Virus record (IMG/VR): IMGVR_UViG_2713896773_000016
Span: 1-8,431 of that record
DNA from: a virus
Lineage: Duplodnaviria > Heunggongvirae > Uroviricota > Caudoviricetes
Strand: one strand, 5' to 3'
DNA length: 8,431 bases
Translations under genes and position numbers: made by a program
The notes under the pieces: generated by a model
Databases searched by the model: none
What the model saw: the letters and a program-made list of their open reading frames with translations, nothing else
What the model was told of the DNA's origin: nothing
In this document: in pieces, positions 65-8,431 of the stretch
Position numbering within the stretch: the stretch's first letter is position 1
How the letters are laid out: every line of letters starts with the position of its first letter

Positions 65-1366
65 TTAGCTCTCATTCCCGCGCTCATGCAAGCTCCGGCT
101 GTAAACAGAGTCAGCCGGCATTTCTACGCGCACGGAAACGAAATGATCGGCAGGGATATCTACCGGCTCCCCCTCTTCGATTCCGTCTCGTTCATTTCTG
201 GCGAATACTGGGGCGGTTGGATATGTGCGATGATAAGTTCTAACCAAAATGGAACCGTCCGCATTAACTTCATAATCGAGCCAAATCAGCGGCTGCTTGT
301 TGCGGTCAGTGGGGATATCAAAACCGCCGTCTATGCCTCCCCACGCGGCATCAGCATTAAGCCCCATACAGCCTTCAATGAGATATGCTCCGGTATTAAT
401 ACGGGTTACAGTGCATCCTGCTGACTCATCGTTTAATTGAAATTCACCATCAGAATAAATCTTAACAATCGGAGAGGCAGACTTTATAAATCCACTACTA
501 TCTACCGTTGTGTTTTGGTCCGTCCACATTCTGGTTCGCCATGATTCTGTATTAACATCTACTCCAGAAGCTTTAGTCTGTTTGCACACAACACCAACAT
601 TTTTGGACGAGCTATTGGCATACCAAGTAAAGGCGAAGTTGTTCACACCCTCGTTTGTTTTTGCCGTCAGTTTACCTTCATGACCAGCACCACCAAAACC
701 ACCTGCTGATAAACTTGAATAGTACCAGGAAAAAGAATTTTCACTCTCCGCTGCCGATAGAGGCGGGGCCTTAACAGGGGTGCCAAAACCAAAATCGCCT
801 AAAGAAAGAATATCTCCGGATGTGCTGTAAGCATTGCGTGTGGCGCTACTTCCTAAACCGAGGTTTGTGCGAGCGGCTTCTTTGGTTTTTGCGCCGGTCC
901 CACCCTGGTCAATACTCAATGCTGTACTTAGCCCTTTCAGCTCTGTGATATCGCTATTTGCCCCTTTCCGGGCGAGACCACCGATGGCAGGAATGCTGAG
1001 GCTGGTGCCGTTGATTGTCACAGTGACCAGTTGGTTCGCTGAGGTACTGGCGAACGTTTCCCACGCACCGATATTCTCGTCATACTCATTGATGAGCTGA
1101 GACATGGCCTGTGCCAGTCCATCAACCGAGATAATGTCTGATACCAGAATGCCGTACTTCTGGCCGCTCAGCGCCGGGGAAGCAGCTGGAGTAACCGTCA
1201 TTGACGTGGCGCTATTCACGGATGAAATCTGGAACATCTGAACCGGGTTAGACATGACAATAATCGTCTGGCCAGCGCGAACCTGGCTGGCCGGTGCAGT
1301 CCAGTTTGTACCGGAGCCGGTTGCGGTATTTCCGTTAATAGAGATAGTTCCGGTGCTATAAATCAT
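65..1366 (-). CDS. Phage tail fiber protein (side tail fiber / receptor-binding fiber), 433 aa
   Basis: Seen: ORF 1366->65 with AGGAG 5 nt upstream of the ATG (minus-strand reading AGGAGTTGTTATG). The translation has a Gly/Thr/Ser-rich N-terminus (MIYSTGTISINGNTATGSGTNWTAP...) and the motif LSIDQGGTGAKTKEAARTNLGLG (aa 150-172, plus ~851..917). Established/inference: from memory this QGGTGA...AR.NLGLG motif is recurrent in enterobacterial phage tail fibers; position directly downstream of J agrees. The C-terminal ~140 aa has no motif I recognise. Confidence 0.7.
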   Translation of the reverse strand: MIYSTGTISINGNTATGSGTNWTAPASQVRAGQTIIVMSNPVQMFQISSVNSATSMTVTPAASPALSGQKYGILVSDIISVDGLAQAMSQLINEYDENIGAWETFASTSANQLVTVTINGTSLSIPAIGGLARKGANSDITELKGLSTALSIDQGGTGAKTKEAARTNLGLGSSATRNAYSTSGDILSLGDFGFGTPVKAPPLSAAESENSFSWYYSSLSAGGFGGAGHEGKLTAKTNEGVNNFAFTWYANSSSKNVGVVCKQTKASGVDVNTESWRTRMWTDQNTTVDSSGFIKSASPIVKIYSDGEFQLNDESAGCTVTRINTGAYLIEGCMGLNADAAWGGIDGGFDIPTDRNKQPLIWLDYEVNADGSILVRTYHRTYPTAPVFARNERDGIEEGEPVDIPADHFVSVRVEMPADSVYSRSLHERGNES

Positions 1367-1486
1367 AACAACTCCTAAATTTAGACAACATGAAGCCCGG
1401 AGAGGTATATAACCATCACCAGAAATAATTTCTGAATTGGTTTTTAATACATATTGGGCAACCTTCCAATTGTGTTATAGACTACT

Positions 1487-1520
1487 AAATATTAACCCCT
1501 CAAAAGAGGGGTTAATATTT
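1487..1520 (-). terminator. Perfect 15-bp inverted repeat with 4-nt loop (AAATATTAACCCCTC-AAAA-GAGGGGTTAATATTT), a terminator-like hairpin overlapping the J stop codon
   Basis: Seen: plus 1487-1501 is the exact reverse complement of 1506-1520. The GC core CCCCTC/GAGGGG is followed on either strand by a U-rich stretch (minus RNA ...GAGGGGUUAAUAUUUAGUAG). The J stop codon (1520-1522) sits at the edge of the stem. Inference: intrinsic terminator and/or RNA-stabilising stem-loop at the 3' end of J, possibly bidirectional. Confidence 0.5.
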
Positions 1521-4500
1521 TAACCTGTGAATGAACCAGATCCGTGTGATACTATGATAGTAGGAGAAGAAATGGACGCACCCCTGCCATTTTGAGCGGA
1601 CACTTTAATACTTACTGTTACGTCTGGGCCTGTCACAACCGCAGAATGCATGATAAGTCTATCTGTGTCTTGCACGGATGAACCACTCTCATTACCGTTG
1701 ATATTGATTATTCCCGCACCATTACCTTTAACGTTTGCTATAACACAGACGTGTCTTGCGTGCCCAGAACTGGATGAATCCTTATAAGTCATTACCTTTT
1801 CTAAAGATCCATCGTTATCCCGACTCACATTCGTCCCTGTGTGCATATTTGCAATGTCCCCGATAAAACTTTGGGCTTCCACAGTCCCTTTGAATTTACC
1901 GCTTGTTGCTTGGATCTCACCAGTAAAGCTACCGCCACTAGCATATACTACACCTCTGACGGTCACATTGTTGAATTCAGCATCTCCAGCTTTATTCAAC
2001 TTCCAACCAGCAGAACCAGCTGCATAGTTGTTGGACTGGATATAGTTGCCGATTTTGGCGTTCTCAATGGTGCCGTCCTGGATGAAGCTGGCCCGGATGA
2101 ATGTCTGCCCGTTCTGGATCACGAACGGCAAAGCTACGCTATTTCCGGCTGCCGTGGTGACGGCGAAGCGGTCAGCCAGGAAGATAACCTGCGACTGCAT
2201 GCCGGATGGCGTATTCTCCACGCCGATACCCATCCCCGCGGCGTAATACTGCCCGTTGCTGGAGACACCAACCTTGATGTTATACATCGCGCTGAGTTCG
2301 CCATTAACGTTGGCTATAGCCTGAGCGTTAGTGGTGATGGCGGAGGTATGCCCGTTCACGGTCGCCGTGATGCCGTTTATCTGCGTGGCGGTGGCCTGCT
2401 GATAGTCGGAGAGCGTCTGATTCAGGCTGTTGATGGATGCCTTGTTGCCGTTGACGTCCGTCCGCAGGCTCAGCAATGAACGTGCTGTGGCTTCCTTCTC
2501 ACTGACGATCACCTCGTCGAGACGATCCAGCTGCGCACTGTTACCGGCGACCGTTGCGGAAAGCCTTTTGCGTGTGGCCACCTGCGCCAGTCCGTTCTGG
2601 ATAATGGCAATGGCTGAGTTCTTAACCCCGCCCGTCATGCCGTCCATAGACACGCTGATGCTGTCGATTCGCTGGCCCAGCGCGGTATCAGCCGTTGCGA
2701 CGGTCTGCTCAAGATCTGATAGAGAGGACGACACATCACCGACCGTGCTCGAAAGCTCATTAACACTGGTCTGAACCTGCCCAATGTCCTGCGCGTTTTT
2801 TGCGATTTCCTGCGCCTGGAGCTCAAGTTCATCGTTGGCCTGTTTGATGTCGTCAGCCATGCCAGCAATTTTTTCATTGCTGTCCACCGCGTTCTCGATC
2901 AGGTCTTTGAACGTATCGGAGTCTTTAATTTCCTCCAGAATCACATCTGTGATATCGGAAACATCGATGCTGGCCTGTCCTCGCACCCATTCTGTGTACC
3001 CTGATTCGTTGCCGCTGCGGTCCACCAGCTGCGCGCGGTACCAGAAAATCTGCCCAGCCTTAAGCCCCATCTGCTGATAAAGTTTCTGCGGATACGGTAC
3101 AGATGCCAAAAGCATAGGATTCGAACCGTCAGCGGCAATGCTGTATTGCAGTTCAGTGCTCAGGGTGTCGCCGGTATTAGCCGGGAATCCCCAGGTGACG
3201 TTGATTCCGAATACGACGTCTTCGGAGGCCTTAAGCCCGACAGGTTTGGGTACCTCACCCGCGCGTCCCTTCAGGTGTGTAAGCGCGGAAGTTGCCCAGA
3301 GACTCGATGCGCCGCCGGAGTTGATCGCGCGTACACGGACCAGATAATCACCCTCGAAGATGCCAGGCACTTCGATATTGCGAAGACCGGTCTCCGGTAC
3401 GTTAACCCACTCATTGTCGCCGCGCTTCCACTGCACCCGATAGGCTATGACATCCGCCTGTGGTTTGCCGTTCTTGTCGACCGGCGCATCCCAGGATGCC
3501 GTCAGGGTAGCCACTCGCTGCCCCTGGCGCACTGCGTCATAGCTCGCTACCACGATATTGGTCGGCTGGTTGACGAGGCCGGTTGGTATCAGACTAATTG
3601 GCGGCGTGTCCAGGCGGGCATTGTTATCGACCGCATCATATTTTGATGCGTTATATTCGGCCCCGGTGATAGTGAAGGTGTTTTCTTCATCATCAAATCT
3701 CAGGTTCGTAACGCGGAAGTATTGCAGGCGCAACTGCCCTGCATCGATGACGAATACAGCGTTAGGTAACGGCTCTGCCGTGAAAGGCGTGGCGATCACC
3801 AGCTGCGTGCCGTTTACGGCCTGGATCACCCTGCTTTCGACGGTACCGCCCCGTGTGCGGATCATCAGTGTGTCACCCGCAACGGCACTGGTTCCCCGAT
3901 CGGTTGTCACAGCCTTCAACCCGGCGTTATATCCGGTTATACGCCCGCCATAAACACGCCCTGAAAGGCGTTCGTCAGCAAATGCAAACACGGTACCCGG
4001 CACGTAGACATAGCCATCAAGCCCGGTCTGTAGCGTAATAATCCGGTCGAGTGAGTTGGAATACACCGCCCACCCGCCACGGCGCTGTGCTTCGCTCTCG
4101 CGCGTACAGCCGATTGCGGTGATCTGCGTCTGCTTAAACTTGAACTGCTTAACCAGGTCCGGGAACATCACCGCTGTTGTGCGGTCCTGATAGTGATTGT
4201 CAGGGTCGCTGAAGTTAATCAGCGCGCTGGAGAAGCGGGTCTTTTCACTGCCGCTCGAGTAAACCGGTTTGCCCACCACCGAAGCGCGGGTAAGGATTTG
4301 CAGCTTCGACGTATCCGCCGGCATGTCCGAGACAACATTGAACATGTTGTTGCCCCAGAAAGTCATTCCGTTGAAGCCCGCGGCAATATCTTTAATCACC
4401 TGCCAGGCATCAGCCTGGGACTGGATGTAAACGTCAAACATGAAGCGTGGCTCGGTACCGCTTCCGCCTTTCCCGTCGGGTACCTTCTGGTCGCAGCGCT

Positions 4501-5434
4501 GGGCGATGCGATAGAGCTCCCACTTATCGAGCATTTCTGGCGTCACGCGGCGCCCAAGGCCGAAGCGCGGCTCAGTCAGAACATCGAACCAAATCCACGC
4601 CGGGTTATTCGTCCAGCCCCATTTAAACGTCCCGTCCCATGTTCCGCTATAAGTCCGCGCTATTGGATCATAGTTCGAAGGGATTCGGATGATGCGCCCC
4701 TTCGGCATGCAGGAAATCTTAGGGATGTTGTTGAATGACTTTGCGTTAAAGGACACGTACAGCAGCGCTGTGTGTGGATATCGCAGGCGAGCATCGATCA
4801 CTTCAGTAATCGCTTGCACCTGCGTTTTGTTCTGCAGCATCTGGCTGGTGCTGTCATCGGTGTCACGCACCACTCGAATTTGCCAGCCAGTGCTGGCTTT
4901 GGGAAGATTAATACGGTGGGTTAGTTCATAGAGCGAGCTGAGCTTCTCTGTGACGGTTTTCGTCATGACTGTCGAGTAAGCGCCACCGTCCACCGCCAGA
5001 TCAATATGGTACTGAACCGTAGTGCCGACAATATCCCCATCGTTTTCCTGCTGCTGTAACCCAGGGATGCCAATACGAACCAGCACCGCGTCAATCTGGG
5101 TGTTACTCAGTGCGCGGGTCCATGGTGTGGCCTTTGTCAGCGATACCCCAACCGTAGTTTCATTCTCGACTGCAGGGAATCCCGGTATTGGTGTCTGGGT
5201 CTGTGTGCCAGGCCGGAAATCCCATGACACATTTTCAAAATTCATCGTTCCGTCGGGGTTTCCCAACGGCGTACCGTCCAGGAATATCCGGGTCGCATCC
5301 AGGCCACCAGCAAACTCCCCCTCCCCGAGCGCCAGCAGCATGCGGCAGCGCGCCATTGACTGCGCCGAATCGGGCTGTTCTACAGGTGTGTGCTGCTTCT
5401 GGCTGCCACCCTTTGCACCAGTGATCGCTTCCAT
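1520..5434 (-). CDS. J: Host specificity protein J (central tail fiber / tail tip protein), 1304 aa
   Basis: Seen: 3915-nt ORF. Translation matches remembered lambda gpJ blocks: N-terminal KGGSQKQHTP (lambda KGSSKGHTPRE), QNKT, YSGTWDGTFK (lambda YSGIWDGTFK), CDQKVPDGKGGSGTEPRF (lambda CDQSVPDGFGGTEPRI), a fibronectin-III-like segment (aa ~640-720) and QYYAAGMGIGVENT...VIFLADRFAV (lambda HYVAGIGLSMED...FLVAANRIAF). Established: gpJ forms the tail tip and binds the host receptor through its C-terminal domain. Confidence 0.92.
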   Translation of the reverse strand: MEAITGAKGGSQKQHTPVEQPDSAQSMARCRMLLALGEGEFAGGLDATRIFLDGTPLGNPDGTMNFENVSWDFRPGTQTQTPIPGFPAVENETTVGVSLTKATPWTRALSNTQIDAVLVRIGIPGLQQQENDGDIVGTTVQYHIDLAVDGGAYSTVMTKTVTEKLSSLYELTHRINLPKASTGWQIRVVRDTDDSTSQMLQNKTQVQAITEVIDARLRYPHTALLYVSFNAKSFNNIPKISCMPKGRIIRIPSNYDPIARTYSGTWDGTFKWGWTNNPAWIWFDVLTEPRFGLGRRVTPEMLDKWELYRIAQRCDQKVPDGKGGSGTEPRFMFDVYIQSQADAWQVIKDIAAGFNGMTFWGNNMFNVVSDMPADTSKLQILTRASVVGKPVYSSGSEKTRFSSALINFSDPDNHYQDRTTAVMFPDLVKQFKFKQTQITAIGCTRESEAQRRGGWAVYSNSLDRIITLQTGLDGYVYVPGTVFAFADERLSGRVYGGRITGYNAGLKAVTTDRGTSAVAGDTLMIRTRGGTVESRVIQAVNGTQLVIATPFTAEPLPNAVFVIDAGQLRLQYFRVTNLRFDDEENTFTITGAEYNASKYDAVDNNARLDTPPISLIPTGLVNQPTNIVVASYDAVRQGQRVATLTASWDAPVDKNGKPQADVIAYRVQWKRGDNEWVNVPETGLRNIEVPGIFEGDYLVRVRAINSGGASSLWATSALTHLKGRAGEVPKPVGLKASEDVVFGINVTWGFPANTGDTLSTELQYSIAADGSNPMLLASVPYPQKLYQQMGLKAGQIFWYRAQLVDRSGNESGYTEWVRGQASIDVSDITDVILEEIKDSDTFKDLIENAVDSNEKIAGMADDIKQANDELELQAQEIAKNAQDIGQVQTSVNELSSTVGDVSSSLSDLEQTVATADTALGQRIDSISVSMDGMTGGVKNSAIAIIQNGLAQVATRKRLSATVAGNSAQLDRLDEVIVSEKEATARSLLSLRTDVNGNKASINSLNQTLSDYQQATATQINGITATVNGHTSAITTNAQAIANVNGELSAMYNIKVGVSSNGQYYAAGMGIGVENTPSGMQSQVIFLADRFAVTTAAGNSVALPFVIQNGQTFIRASFIQDGTIENAKIGNYIQSNNYAAGSAGWKLNKAGDAEFNNVTVRGVVYASGGSFTGEIQATSGKFKGTVEAQSFIGDIANMHTGTNVSRDNDGSLEKVMTYKDSSSSGHARHVCVIANVKGNGAGIININGNESGSSVQDTDRLIMHSAVVTGPDVTVSIKVSAQNGRGASISSPTIIVSHGSGSFTG

Positions 5435-5445
5435 ATTACATCCAT

Positions 5446-5470
5446 AAAAAAAGCACCCAATTGGGTGCTT
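5446..5470 (-). terminator. Terminator-like hairpin between I and J: palindrome AAGCACCCAATTGGGTGCTT followed on the minus strand by a 7-U run, ending 12 nt upstream of the J start codon
   Basis: Seen: plus 5451-5470 is a perfect 20-nt palindrome (GC core GCACCC/GGGTGC, AATT centre); plus 5446-5452 is A7, giving U7 immediately 3' of the stem on the minus-strand RNA. Inference: intrinsic terminator or attenuator; function unproven. Confidence 0.45.
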
Positions 5471-5489: not shown

Positions 5490-6083
5490 TCAGATGTCTT
5501 CAGCGACTATGCCTGCACTGATGATGGCGCCGCCAATCTCACGGACGCCATAGAGAAGCGCGACCGGGCTTCCCATCGCAAGGGTATTCACCGAGCCACC
5601 AAAGGCATAAGAGGGTTTATTGTCAGGGTCGTCTCGCCCCTGTAACCCTTTGGGCTGAGGTGATAGCATCTGGTAAATGCCGCCTGCCATCATTGACGCG
5701 CCCGACATCGCAAGGCCTGTGCCAAACGTAGCCAAAGTACCGGAGCTAAAGTAAGAAATTGCGATACCAGCCACCACCATCACAGCGCCCAGGATGGTCT
5801 GAAATACTCCGGCTTTTTTCGAACCTTCCATAATCGGCGCAATGCGGATATCACTGTCTCCTGCCAGCTCCTGGAAGTCCTGAGTGCCGATATTCCTTTT
5901 TCCGCGAAACACCGCGAAGATCATGCCATTTTTTTTGGCATTCATCAGATAATCTTCCAGCCCGTCGAAGTTGATACACAGGGCTTTGACCGCTTCGGCA
6001 GATGTCTGCACTGCCAGTTTATGCACACGCCCGAAGCGGGCGCCCAGTGCGCCATACAGACGAATGGTGGTTAAACGCGCCAT
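5490..6083 (-). CDS. I: Tail assembly protein I (lambda gpI-like), 197 aa from the preferred start
   Basis: Seen: the track ORF is 5490..6170, but the ATG at 6083-6081 is preceded by AGGAGA with 7-nt spacing and overlaps the K stop (6071-6073) by 13 nt, typical translational coupling. Translation MARLTTIRLYGALGARFGRVHKL... with an internal hydrophobic Gly/Ala-rich stretch (GVFQTILGAVMVVAGIAISYF). Established/inference: position between K and J plus family-like features support gpI; I could not align to lambda gpI from memory residue by residue. Confidence 0.8.
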   Translation of the reverse strand: MARLTTIRLYGALGARFGRVHKLAVQTSAEAVKALCINFDGLEDYLMNAKKNGMIFAVFRGKRNIGTQDFQELAGDSDIRIAPIMEGSKKAGVFQTILGAVMVVAGIAISYFSSGTLATFGTGLAMSGASMMAGGIYQMLSPQPKGLQGRDDPDNKPSYAFGGSVNTLAMGSPVALLYGVREIGGAIISAGIVAEDI

Positions 6084-6802
6084 GGCTTTATCTCCTGCGG
6101 CAGGTATTTGTGACGAACGCAGATCATCGTGCGGTCTTTGAAATAGCCACGGGCATAAGGCGTGACACACGAGGGCTGGCCGTAAAGATGGTGCAGCAGT
6201 TCGCCTTCTTCAGTGATGATGCCCGCATGGTTCCACTTATCCGAATCAACCTGCATGATGACCATGCAGCCTGGTGCCGGATCGCACTCGACGAATCCTT
6301 CCCGTTCCCAGTTATCAAAATAGAGGTTGTCCGGGTACTGGCTTTCCCACCACGGGTAATCGACGCGAAAATCGTTCAGCGTGACGCCCTGAATGGCGTG
6401 CCAGTCCATAATCAGCCCCCAGCAGTCATTCGAGCCCAGGATAAACGGACGCCCAATAAGCGGCACCGCCTCCGGCATTATCTCGGCGTATTCATCGCTG
6501 TCCGGAGCGTAAATACCCCATACCAAGCCGGAGTTGTTGCACTGCTGGCGGTCCAGATCTGACGGAATAGGCCGGGCACCGTCGCCCGGGTGGGAGTGGA
6601 TGACGCGAATAATCGTCCCGATATCTTCGGCGTTAGCCCAGTGCTCGCCGTCGATGCGAAAATGTTCTGTCGGATTTTCGTGCGTATTCGGCACGGGAAT
6701 GTAGCGCTGGCGACGGCCAGACTGAATAACGAAGCCACAGCACTCACGCGGGGATTCCTCCAGTGCATGCGCCCGGATAGCTGCCATTATGGTTTTATTC
6801 AT
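6071..6802 (-). CDS. K: Tail assembly protein K (lambda gpK-like; MPN/JAMM-type motif plus NlpC/P60-type Cys/His motifs), 243 aa
   Basis: Seen: translation aligns with remembered lambda gpK: IRAHALEESPRECCGFVIQSGRRQRYIPV...PTEHF (lambda IRAHAAAEYPRECCGVVAQKGRRQRYFP...PTEHF), HSHPGDG...S..D (lambda HSHPGG...S..D), NDCWGLIMDW (lambda TDCYTLFRDAY), NHAGIITEEGELLHH (lambda NHAAIYCGDGELLHH). The ATG at 6802-6800 lies 13 nt downstream of the moron terminator and has only a weak SD. Confidence 0.92.
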   Translation of the reverse strand: MNKTIMAAIRAHALEESPRECCGFVIQSGRRQRYIPVPNTHENPTEHFRIDGEHWANAEDIGTIIRVIHSHPGDGARPIPSDLDRQQCNNSGLVWGIYAPDSDEYAEIMPEAVPLIGRPFILGSNDCWGLIMDWHAIQGVTLNDFRVDYPWWESQYPDNLYFDNWEREGFVECDPAPGCMVIMQVDSDKWNHAGIITEEGELLHHLYGQPSCVTPYARGYFKDRTMICVRHKYLPQEIKPWRV

Positions 6803-6811
6803 TGGTACGTC

Positions 6812-6838
6812 CGTAAAAAAACCCGCCGAAGCGGGTTT
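6812..6838 (-). terminator. Rho-independent terminator of the moron gene: stem AAACCCGC / GCGGGTTT, loop TTCG, then a U-run (minus-strand RNA)
   Basis: Seen: plus 6819-6826 aaacccgc pairs with 6831-6838 gcgggttt (8 bp, GC core, 4-nt loop); the minus-strand RNA reads AAACCCGC-UUCG-GCGGGUUUUUUUACGG, a canonical intrinsic-terminator architecture. It lies 7 nt after the moron stop (TAG, 6845-6847) and upstream of the K start. Confidence 0.75.
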
Positions 6839-6844
6839 GGTTAT

Positions 6845-7594
6845 CTAGATGGTTATGGAGAGGTCGGGCCTAACCTTTTTCCTGAGAATGTATTTGCTAA
6901 TGCCAGTCCGTAACGCGGCCTCTTTAAGTTGCATTTTTTCGCCATTCAAAATTACGTAAGGGATTCGGTTTCGTACAGGTTTCGCTAACGCATCTTCGGC
7001 ATTCATACCGGCGTTTAGTCTGTTGTAAAAAGTTGACTCTTTCATGCCATTTGTTTGCCATGCTGCGCTCATAGTTACCGACTCTCCGCTCACGACAACT
7101 TTATGATTATTGCGCTTGTTGCGACCTTGCTCTGTAGCATTTGCCCATCGACAATTGTCTGGAGAATAGCCTTTATTGTTATCTATGCGTTCAATTGAGA
7201 ACCCTTTAGGCTTCTCACCCATGTCATGAGCAAAATTCACGGGGTTGCTCCATTCATCGCAGACTGTTATACCCCGCCCGCCATAGTGGGGAAAGTCCTT
7301 GCAAGCAGGATTTCGACAGCGATCAAGCATAGATGTCCAAGACGAATATCCTGAATAAGCTGTGATTGGCTTGCCATTATGCAGTTTTGTTATTTTTTTC
7401 TTATGATAACAGCCGCAAGAAACAACAGCGCCACTACGGAGTGACCCCATGGAAATGCTCTTAACAACACCACATTCACAAGAGCACAAAAAGTATCTGA
7501 GACCTTTTGTTTTTATATGGCTAGGGGCTTTGGTTTCTTTAATAATTGTAAGATAGCCGTACTTTTCACCCGGAAAAATAGTAATGCGTGACAT
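6845..7594 (-). CDS. Accessory (moron) gene inserted between L and K: 249-aa protein with a Cys-rich zinc-ribbon-like N-terminus, an HNH-like endonuclease-related core and C-terminal HTH-like modules
   Basis: Seen: ORF with SD GAGG 5 nt before the ATG (minus reading ACGAGGTTTATATG), flanked by 99-bp and 42-bp non-coding gaps and followed by its own terminator. Motifs: CSCECG...SCGC (Cys cluster); YSGYSSWTSMLDRCRNP...HYGGRGITVCDEWSNPVNFAHDMGEKPKGFSIERIDNNKGYSPDNCRWANATEQGRNKRNN; C-terminal VILNGEKMQLKEAALRTGISKYILRKKV. Established/inference: from memory this YGGRGI..C..W...F..DMG..P.G.S..RID.N..Y.P.NCRWA...EQ..N pattern is a widespread phage family usually annotated as HNH endonuclease. The position where HNH enzymes carry the catalytic His reads E-R here, so nuclease activity is uncertain. 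Confidence 0.6.
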   Translation of the reverse strand: MSRITIFPGEKYGYLTIIKETKAPSHIKTKGLRYFLCSCECGVVKSISMGSLRSGAVVSCGCYHKKKITKLHNGKPITAYSGYSSWTSMLDRCRNPACKDFPHYGGRGITVCDEWSNPVNFAHDMGEKPKGFSIERIDNNKGYSPDNCRWANATEQGRNKRNNHKVVVSGESVTMSAAWQTNGMKESTFYNRLNAGMNAEDALAKPVRNRIPYVILNGEKMQLKEAALRTGISKYILRKKVRPDLSITI

Positions 7595-7686
7595 ATAAAC
7601 CTCGTAGCAGGTTGCGTAGATGATGGTGCGCGGCAGGAGTGTCTACGTTCACTCTCTTCGACTGGCCAGTCTAGCCGCGCTGACAG

Positions 7687-7692
7687 ATTATA
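7687..7692 (-). promoter_or_regulatory. Candidate sigma70 -10 hexamer (TATAAT on the minus strand) immediately after the L stop codon, ~90 nt upstream of the moron start
   Basis: Seen: minus-strand reading ...TAA-TTATAAT-CTGTCAGCG...; perfect TATAAT but no convincing -35 at 16-18 nt spacing (best is TACCAC). Inference only; it fits the moron architecture of promoter, gene, terminator. Confidence 0.2.
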
Positions 7693-7693
7693 A

Positions 7694-8431
7694 TTACCTG
7701 CTCAGTAAAGTGGTAGCAGGAAATCCACCGTAGTCGAGGATGGCCGCGTTCGGCTCCGCTAGGCCAGCGCCGAACCGTTTACGGCAATCACTGAGGCAGC
7801 CCCCACACGCATCCAGCGGCGGATCAGCCACCGCGTTACCCTTCGCGTCGAAATATGCCGTACCGTTATAGGTGCATCCATCGCCGCTCCGGTACTGCCC
7901 GCGTAGCGCCCATTCGCAGAGCGAGGTGATTTGTCTGGTTGGGATAACAAGCCCCTGCAAGTCAGCGGGGCTACTGAGTGACCATGAAACCACTTCGTCG
8001 TCTTCGGAGGTTTTCGTGTCAAGCCAGAAAGTCTGAAGCGTGAACATCGACGGGTCGGCGGTCGGGTTCACCCCACCAGGGTAATTCACGGCATCGAGGT
8101 AAACCGAATAGGTGTCGATAATGCTCACTTTTGCGTTAACCATGTCCTTAAATTGCAGGCACAGCGCAGTGATATGACCGTCGAGGTTGGAAACGCTAAG
8201 AGACGGCTCTGCCGCCTGGTCTGTTGATAGCTCCAGGCCTGAAACCTGAAACGGCCAAAAATCGTAGATATTGCCACCGAAGACAATTGGCTTGGGTCCA
8301 AGCTTTTCTTCATCTCCATTGGCAGCATCAATTTCTTCCGGCGTATGGGGGAAAGGTGCGTAGTGGAATCGGTGGATTCCGCCACTGAACTCTGAGGCGT
8401 CAACTTCAACCAGGCGTACCCTGCCACCCGG
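7694..8431 (-). CDS. L: Minor tail protein L (lambda gpL-like), 5'-truncated by the window edge (C-terminal 245 codons present)
   Basis: Seen: I translated the minus strand from 8431 down to the TAA at 7694-7696; the frame is open across the whole stretch with no stop (PGGRVRLVEVDASEF...SLSVSNLDGHITALCLQFKDMVNAKVSIIDTYSVYLDAVNY...CGGCLSDCRKRF...). The ATG at 8143 in the ORF track is therefore an internal Met. Matches remembered lambda gpL: TLTVSNLYGMVT / YARFLDAVNF / CSKCLSGCKFR. Confidence 0.88.
   Translation of the reverse strand, partial: PGGRVRLVEVDASEFSGGIHRFHYAPFPHTPEEIDAANGDEEKLGPKPIVFGGNIYDFWPFQVSGLELSTDQAAEPSLSVSNLDGHITALCLQFKDMVNAKVSIIDTYSVYLDAVNYPGGVNPTADPSMFTLQTFWLDTKTSEDDEVVSWSLSSPADLQGLVIPTRQITSLCEWALRGQYRSGDGCTYNGTAYFDAKGNAVADPPLDACGGCLSDCRKRFGAGLAEPNAAILDYGGFPATTLLSR

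Follow-up and report, generated by a model that had tools for sequence, protein, structure and literature searches.

The question raised by this locus is how an essential tail gene can be expressed when a terminator-like hairpin stands directly before its start codon. The window, a stretch of 8,431 nucleotides from a tailed phage (IMG/VR record IMGVR_UViG_2713896773_000016), carries genes on the minus strand throughout, in the order L, ORF249, K, I, J and a tail-fibre-like gene, and the hairpin lies between ORF249 and K. A first-pass annotation had taken ORF249 for a moron insulated by its own terminator within an essential operon, with K reached by Q-dependent read-through. Our analysis made it probable that the hairpin closes a self-contained, horizontally acquired unit in an HK639-like lambdoid phage and that Q-modified RNA polymerase would read through it.

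Read along the minus strand from the stop codon of ORF249 to the start codon of K, the junction has the order UAG-AUAACC-AAACCCGC-UUCG-GCGGGUUU-UUUU-A-CGGACGUACCA-AUG. The 5' arm AAACCCGC (6838..6831) and the 3' arm GCGGGUUU (6826..6819) form an 8-bp stem with five G-C pairs, closed by a UUCG tetraloop (6830..6827), and the free energy (dG) of the hairpin is -12.2 kcal/mol. A run of seven U (U7, 6821..6815) follows, the first three of which are able to pair with AAA, and then an A at 6814. The hairpin is co-oriented with ORF249 and begins 6 nt beyond its stop codon, and 12 nt separate the last U from the AUG of K (6802..6800), a start codon kept in all aligned relatives; the 13 nt given earlier was thus essentially right. 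The hairpin was directional, as its tail when read from the plus strand (TTTGGTT) was poor. A GC-rich, stable stem-loop with an uninterrupted U tract, co-oriented just 3' of a stop codon, confirmed the element as a predicted Rho-independent terminator, for which "strong" is likewise a prediction.

Folding energy by itself was unremarkable, because 8 of 200 shuffles folded as well as the 48-nt context (minimum free energy -13.2, z = -2.0). It is the hairpin combined with the U7 run that is remarkable, unlike the energy alone. A strict scan (perfect stem of >=5 pairs with >=3 G-C, dG <= -8, and >=6 T in the 8 nt after the G-C core) of all 8431 bases on both strands returned exactly two sites, 6838..6819 before K and 5470..5451 before J, each on the coding strand, in an intergenic spacer and directly 5' of a tail gene. 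Among 100 dinucleotide shuffles the mean was 0.18 +/- 0.46 sites, and a site with dG <= -12 appeared in three. A standard promoter/terminator scan of the window did not report the 6838..6819 site because it extended the stem through the A-U pairs, leaving too few T in the tail. The claims of a stable hairpin with a U tract between the inserted gene and K therefore stood, as did the claim that K has no evident promoter of its own: a consensus promoter scan of the window found no promoter-like site for K, and the only Shine-Dalgarno (SD)-like element was a weak GGA (6812..6810), 7 nt 5' of the AUG and within CGGACGUACCA.

Comparison with relatives indicated how the hairpin came to lie there. The closest phage, HK639 (88.9% identity), does not carry ORF249, and neither do 10 of the 12 matching Escherichia coli prophages; the gene was present in the other two and in several IMG/VR contigs. 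Cassette-less genomes have the L stop codon, CCGGACGTACCA (12 nt) and the K ATG, so arranged that CGGACGUACCA directly follows the stop codon plus one C. Homology of the window to these genomes ended after the L stop (7694) and restarted at 6813, just past the U run and one A, so that the insertion spans 7693..6814 and the terminator is its last element. The GC content of the insertion was 0.42-0.46, against 0.55-0.59 in the flanks. Moreover, the 1099 bp from 6720 to 7818 were 100% identical to two prophages (L003 and L004) that are otherwise ~92% identical to the window, with 5-45 differences per 100 bp outside the tract. The tract comprised the cassette with ~95 bp of K and ~125 bp of L, and its ends were identical for both prophages. 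This is the pattern expected from a putative recent lateral spread with short co-converted flanks, although ordinary recombination could produce the same pattern of identity. Together, the GC dip and the identical tract point to a probable horizontal origin of the cassette.

The insertion thus shared the traits of two kinds of element. It lies between genes that are adjacent in relatives, deviates in GC content and has its own terminator inside its boundaries, as a moron does; it is also intergenic and sporadic among close relatives, with an identical cassette and flanks in diverged genomes, as a homing gene is. The L-K junction is a recurrent insertion site, as ORF249 homologues were found there in other phages, at 78% (L007), 70% (L008) and 58% (L009) identity. 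In L007 and L008 the hairpin AACCCGCUUCGGCGGGUUUUUUU was identical base for base to that of the window while the bases on either side differed, and K and I were intact 3' of the cassette. Intact K and I next to such diverged cassettes indicated that the terminator has coexisted with functional-looking essential genes through considerable divergence.

Coexistence of this kind would be expected if late transcription resists terminators. Transcripts from the lambdoid late promoter PR' end at tR' unless Q modifies the polymerase (PMC7547250). The ABWA45 prophage, a complete-looking lambdoid with an identical cassette, encodes a Q protein (Pfam PF03589) between ninG and the holin gene, and HK639 encodes a Q protein of family PF06530. 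The strict scan of ABWA45 found ten co-oriented terminators from Q to J and no antisense site within the late region. Two of the ten separate Q from the holin gene, single sites follow the lysis genes and the major capsid gene, three surround the tail tube and chaperone genes, and M, K and J are each preceded by one. Six terminators are annotated in the structural operon of the HK639 record, including those directly before M and J. In this phage group, M, K and J are all preceded by the layout hairpin-U7-A-(U/C)GGAG/GGA-N5-7-AUG. For a terminator to abut the ribosome-binding site (RBS) of an essential late gene is therefore nothing unusual here, and the arrangement is best explained by terminator-resistant late transcription, which is the natural reading since the relatives encode Q and have about ten co-oriented terminators.

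The second site of the window, between I and J, was of equal quality to the L-K site, ended 9 nt 5' of the J AUG (5434) and is native to the operon. HK639 has the same element, labelled "terminator" in its record, and so does the ABWA45 prophage; it may be a reused site or the relic of a lost cassette.

Morons come with a promoter and a terminator that allow them to be expressed while the prophage is repressed (PMC3594210). A TATAAT hexamer at the 5' end of the cassette was kept in the window, L007 and L008 (its 6-nt spacer to the leader described below was not conserved), and the cassette of L009 has an extended -10-like element, TGGTATACT, right after the L stop codon. A transcript starting at this candidate promoter, for the terminator to stop, is plausible because of the conserved TATAAT and the extended -10 elements of sister cassettes at that position.

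The mechanism that we favour would run as follows. A cassette carrying TATAAT, a structured RNA leader of the int-alpA class, ORF249 and the terminator inserted exactly into the 12-nt spacer between L and K. In the lysogen, unmodified RNA polymerase, whether it started at the candidate cassette promoter or arrived from farther upstream, would stop within the U run at ~6818..6815, before the ribosome-binding region of K, and K, I and J would stay silent. During lytic growth, Q-modified polymerase would pass the L-K site together with roughly nine other co-oriented terminators, and K would be translated from the retained ancestral spacer. We infer from sequence the termination efficiency, the promoter activity, the Q-dependent read-through at this site and the nuclease or homing activity of the product. 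The insulation model of the first-pass annotation was thus plausible given Q and the approximately ten terminators of the relatives, but it had singled out a site that proved to be one of many.

Several observations weigh against this mechanism. Q and PR' lie outside the 8.4-kb window, and their presence was deduced from relatives that are 89-92% identical in the region. The window TATAAT is a perfect -10 but has no TG extension and no recognisable -35, and the consensus scan did not call it; at 16-18 nt spacing, the best -35 candidate found by eye in the aligned sequences of the window, L007 and L008 had three of six matches. The L009 cassette (1496..2317) has neither leader nor terminator, and its open reading frame (ORF) stops 12 nt from the K ATG. 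Insulation was therefore dispensable in at least one lineage, and a terminator is no necessity. Of 100 non-redundant loci with ORF249 homologues, only 9 had a terminator-like site in the 90 nt after the stop codon, and six of these nine were close relatives of the L|K cassette, which indicated that the terminator is a trait of the lambdoid cassette rather than of ORF249 proteins in general. Finally, no accessory gene lies upstream of the I-J terminator in the window, so such hairpins may have roles beyond the insulation of morons.

A role of that kind would be partial attenuation, in which a fraction of Q-modified transcripts stops at the hairpin, so that K, I and J, tail-tip genes of low copy number, are stepped down relative to upstream genes. 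In keeping with it, terminator-like sites fall where gene stoichiometry shifts (behind the major capsid gene, near the tail tube gene and ahead of M, K and J), and the I-J site exists without an inserted gene; in T4 a terminator inside mobE stops ~30% of transcripts, which was proposed to balance nrdA and nrdB (PMC2988022). We nevertheless consider attenuation unlikely as the explanation. The L-K site is missing in most relatives, whose operons function without a step-down there; the terminator came with the cassette and did not evolve in place; and Q-modified polymerase classically resists intrinsic terminators (PMC7547250).

The spread of the hairpin itself bears on two further explanations. 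The exact 24-mer of the hairpin was found in at least 120 viral contigs, where its surroundings vary widely, and an SD and start codon followed 10-18 nt after it in ~45% of 122 occurrences. In addition, an exact 23-mer of the hairpin was present twice per tail operon in L008 (663, 2697) and L018 (1247, 3258), once before M after a Fic-domain moron and once before K after the nuclease cassette. These direct repeats, ~2 kb apart, could allow deletion or exchange.

The frequent SD and start codon, along with the repeated hairpin, U7, SD and AUG layout before M, K and J, would fit an element acting at the RNA level, where the hairpin shields a processed upstream message from 3' exonucleases and uncouples translation of ORF249 and K, and where the U-rich tract serves as a ribosome (S1) landing site for K. 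The insertion also breaks the ancestral 12-nt coupling distance between L and K, so that K needs de novo initiation. The hairpin nevertheless has all canonical terminator features, including an uninterrupted U7 that a stabiliser would not need, which makes this role improbable as the main one; it would be compatible with, and secondary to, termination of unmodified polymerase. Still less probable was a portable recombination joint, in which the junction of hairpin, U run and RBS offers short homology for cassette exchange, as in PeSL cassettes, and termination is incidental. The duplicated 23-mer within one operon, the right boundary of the insertion at the end of the U run, and the many contigs and diverse flanks of the 24-mer, with the PeSL precedent (PMC2839356), speak for such a joint. 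However, the L-K spacer of cassette-less relatives has no hairpin with which to recombine, 24 nt is short for homologous exchange, and a C(UUCG)G hairpin with a U run is a generic optimal terminator, so convergence is possible. The identical tract, which reaches ~100 bp past the cassette on each side, was a better fit to homing-type co-conversion or to recombination through flanking homology. That the insertion is a polar block in a decaying prophage, which switched off K, I and J and was tolerated because the prophage is defective, is scarcely credible, as these genes are intact in the window and in every cassette-bearing relative (including those with ORFs 70-78% identical), the ABWA45 prophage looks complete, cassette-bearing IMG/VR contigs are ~50 kb long, and equivalent terminators precede M and J in HK639, a viable phage. 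The rivals are mostly compatible additions to termination of unmodified polymerase with Q-dependent read-through, more than replacements for it.

The cargo of the cassette changed what the unit should be called. ORF249 matched PHROG_374, "HNH endonuclease", at E 2.8e-59, and no Pfam or NCBIfam family. It has 7356 database relatives and matches in 1189 phage records, often in multiple copies per genome; a scan of genome contigs for relatives returned three distant loci only. The protein consists of an N-terminal Cys4 zinc ribbon, a central core (..YGGRGI..DRIDNNKGY..NCRW..EQ..N) and two C-terminal helix-turn-helix-like modules. The conserved residues were the Cys4 ribbon, YGGRGI and R136/D138/Y143/N147/C148, and there was no conserved His. 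An alternative identity, a LexA-controlled antirepressor of the Gifsy type, was rejected, as 7595..7693 contains no LexA box and the family is nuclease-like.

The cargo is therefore a putative selfish HNH-endonuclease-like gene, carried in a mobile cassette with homing-type signatures, and not a gene of lysogenic conversion. Of the term moron, the part that held was an inserted accessory unit with its own terminator; the implied conversion gene did not. In annotation, ORF249 should be labelled an HNH-like mobile nuclease cassette instead of a conversion gene. For the operon, this is one more case in which lambdoid late transcription units tolerate intrinsic terminators of predicted strength directly before essential genes. 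In line with the moron concept, inserted cassettes arrive with a terminator of their own, and the architecture found here matches published descriptions of morons.

Between the candidate promoter and ORF249 lies a structured leader that scored above the gathering threshold of the Rfam family int-alpA, which Rfam classes as a small RNA (sRNA). Other copies scored 41.6 bits (L008), 44.6 bits (the second of the L014 copies) and 36.5 bits (L069); the L007 leader fell below the E <= 0.01 cut-off for listing in the int-alpA search. The int-alpA motif reportedly goes back to the screen of Weinberg et al. 2017, and its name is absent from the main text of that paper (PMC5737381). We know of no assigned function for this RNA.

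In the window, helix P1 pairs 7680..7674 with 7634..7628, and the loop of helix P3, AACGUAGA (7649..7642), is complementary to two places downstream, site 1 (UCUACG, 7620..7615) and site 2 (CUACG, 7607..7603), the latter abutting the SD GAGG (7603..7600) of ORF249. The three-helix fold was supported by compensatory changes in 9 of 14 pairs (RNAalifold, five sequences). Complementarity between loop and sites was retained in five leaders despite three different loop sequences; loops that differ from that of the window (CACAGA and UGUUCG among them) went with both sites changing to match. Across 33 leaders, the three-helix structure had 95.8% of cells paired (slid controls, 24-52%) and the structure with either pseudoknot ~96% (slid controls, 22-55%), with double changes in 15 pairs, for an alignment that was fitted to a model built from the same sequences and so favours structure. 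None of 500 shuffles reached these values. The leader thus looks like a cis-acting two-state translational switch, a predicted function that draws on the covariation of both pairings across the 33 leaders.

The leader was absent 5' of ~97 distant ORF249 homologues and in 100 loci with the 24-mer, except in L069 and the same phage group. Leader and hairpin are independent modules. A put-like antiterminator RNA, of which HK639 carries one, was considered as another identity for the leader but is not favoured: the HK639 record annotates a putL-like RNA in the early region, and a search of HK639 with the leader model (cmsearch) found nothing. The put RNA is a structure of two stem-loops, unlike the three-helix int-alpA fold.

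The coordinates of these elements and of the neighbouring genes are collected in Table 1.

Table 1. Features of the window, in the order in which they are transcribed
Feature	Position	Strand	Basis or remark
Minor tail protein L	8431..7694	-	Pfam Phage_tail_L, E 3.8e-58; 5' end lies beyond the window
Inserted cassette, 880 bp (-10, leader, ORF249, terminator)	7693..6814	-	absent in cassette-less relatives
TATAAT, candidate -10	7692..7687	-	2 nt after the L stop codon, 6 nt 5' of leader P1
Structured 5' leader of ORF249, Rfam int-alpA (RF02996)	7681..7595	-	cmscan 39.4 bits, gathering threshold 35.8
ORF249, HNH-endonuclease-like, 249 aa	7594..6845	-	stop codon TAG 6847..6845
Intrinsic-terminator-like hairpin	6838..6815	-	sequence, dG, strict scan against shuffles; closes the cassette on its 3' side
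Ancestral L-K spacer remnant CGGACGUACCA	6813..6803	-	alignment; common to cassette-bearing and cassette-less genomes
Tail protein K, JAB and NlpC/P60	6802..6071	-	Pfam PF14464 and PF00877; first gene 3' of the terminator
Gene I	6083..5490	-	
Second terminator-like hairpin AAGCACCCAAUUGGGUGCUU with U7	5470..5444	-	between I and J; dG -12.7; native to the operon
Gene J	5434..1520	-	
Tail-fibre-like gene	1366..65	-	

Two further observations concern the window as a whole. The stop codon of J and the tail-fibre-like gene are separated by a 153-nt gap (1367..1519, minus strand) that holds only a weak hairpin, CCUCUUUUGAGGGG (1496..1509, minus strand), without a proper U run. A 4349-bp viral contig, IMGVR_UViG_2713896773_000007 (L017), was 100% identical to the window across 3246 bp; its source may be the phage of the window itself or a clonal one.

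A search of IMG/VR with a pattern made from P1 and P2 of the leader indicated that the window cassette has company. It returned 60 stretches, which reduced to 31 distinct leaders (loci L255-L312). In 26 of the 31, a -10-like hexamer ended exactly 6 nt 5' of P1, with a TG extension in 21 (for example TGATATAAT), and at least two loop-complementary sites were present in 25. The ORFs after these leaders belonged to several types, namely HNH_3 with or without AP2 (Pfam E 2e-16), canonical HNH, relatives of ORF249 and GIY-YIG-like; one leader (L309) precedes an SNF2 helicase. A strict terminator lay within 100 nt after 16 of the 23 complete ORFs, and in 13 of those 16 an SD and start codon followed within 30 nt. 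The succession of candidate promoter, leader, nuclease ORF, terminator and RBS of the next gene is a repeated module, of which the window cassette is one member. In L014, a cassette whose canonical HNH ORF spans 265 aa lies between I and J, and its terminator is the native I-J one. Insertion of an HNH cassette with an int-alpA leader just 5' of the I-J terminator was likewise seen in L266 and L282, in addition to L014.

These results could be joined in a wider reading, possible but tentative, of an undescribed modular nuclease cassette of enterobacterial phages in which int-alpA is a cis leader common to unrelated nuclease families (HNH_3/AP2, canonical HNH, ORF249 PacI-like and GIY-YIG-like). 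Its layout would comprise an extended -10, the int-alpA RNA, an endonuclease ORF, an intrinsic terminator and the RBS of the next gene. The P3 loop would pair with either repeat, forming a two-state translational switch that limits nuclease synthesis, and promoter and terminator would isolate the selfish gene transcriptionally from the essential operon it has invaded. If true, this would provide a testable hypothesis for the function of int-alpA and for how temperate phages restrain selfish nucleases. The wider value of the locus lies in an int-alpA leader with a covarying alternative pseudoknot by the RBS, which outranks the terminator itself in importance.

The cassette was similar to several known systems without coinciding with any of them. 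Like the lambdoid morons of HK97 (gene 15) and HK022, examples of the Juhala/Hendrix concept (PMC3594210), it is an extra gene between tail genes that adjoin in relatives, with deviant GC content, its own terminator and a candidate promoter, placed inside a late operon that is probably Q-dependent. The cargo of those morons benefits the host, whereas here it is HNH-endonuclease-like and an int-alpA leader stands between the candidate promoter and the ORF. The identical cassette and ~100-bp flanks in diverged phages further suggest an active homing-like spread that sets this unit apart from morons.

The free-standing homing genes of T4-type phages (mobE, segB, segF, seg43(25); PMC2988022) resemble the cassette in that a nuclease ORF occupies the spacer between essential genes, is sporadically distributed, is accompanied by intrinsic terminators and by RNA structures at the RBS, and must preserve expression of the essential gene downstream. 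The present host is a temperate lambdoid phage, its terminator is located 3' of the ORF and not inside it, and K, for which no promoter is evident, would depend on antitermination. Here the leader is a three-way junction with a two-site pseudoknot, in contrast to the simple RBS-sequestering hairpin of the T4-type genes, and cleavage and homing here are putative activities.

With the late terminators of HK639 (GenBank HM208537) and the tR'/Q system of lambda (PMC7547250), the locus shares a co-oriented GC-rich hairpin with U7 before the RBS of a late gene. HK639, which encodes Q, has such terminators ahead of M and J and near the major tail gene but none at L-K, whereas the L-K terminator of the window was imported with the cassette. 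In the PeSL cassettes of T4-type phages, short conserved modules of promoter, stem-loop and SD flank variable genes, and such promoter and stem-loop modules can travel with accessory genes (PMC2839356). The likeness lies in transcriptional isolation and in possible exchange points; the difference is that promoter and stem-loop are at opposite ends of the cargo here, and that the empty site has no flanking repeat.

Finally, the leader exceeded the gathering threshold of Rfam int-alpA (RF02996) and has the same three-helix architecture. Window-type leaders do not have the U run that follows P1 in the Rfam consensus. The leader of the window and its 30 sisters sit immediately 5' of an ORF, nearly always of nuclease type; a candidate promoter precedes them by 6 nt and their loop is complementary to two sites by the SD, an arrangement that sets them apart from int-alpA as described in Rfam.

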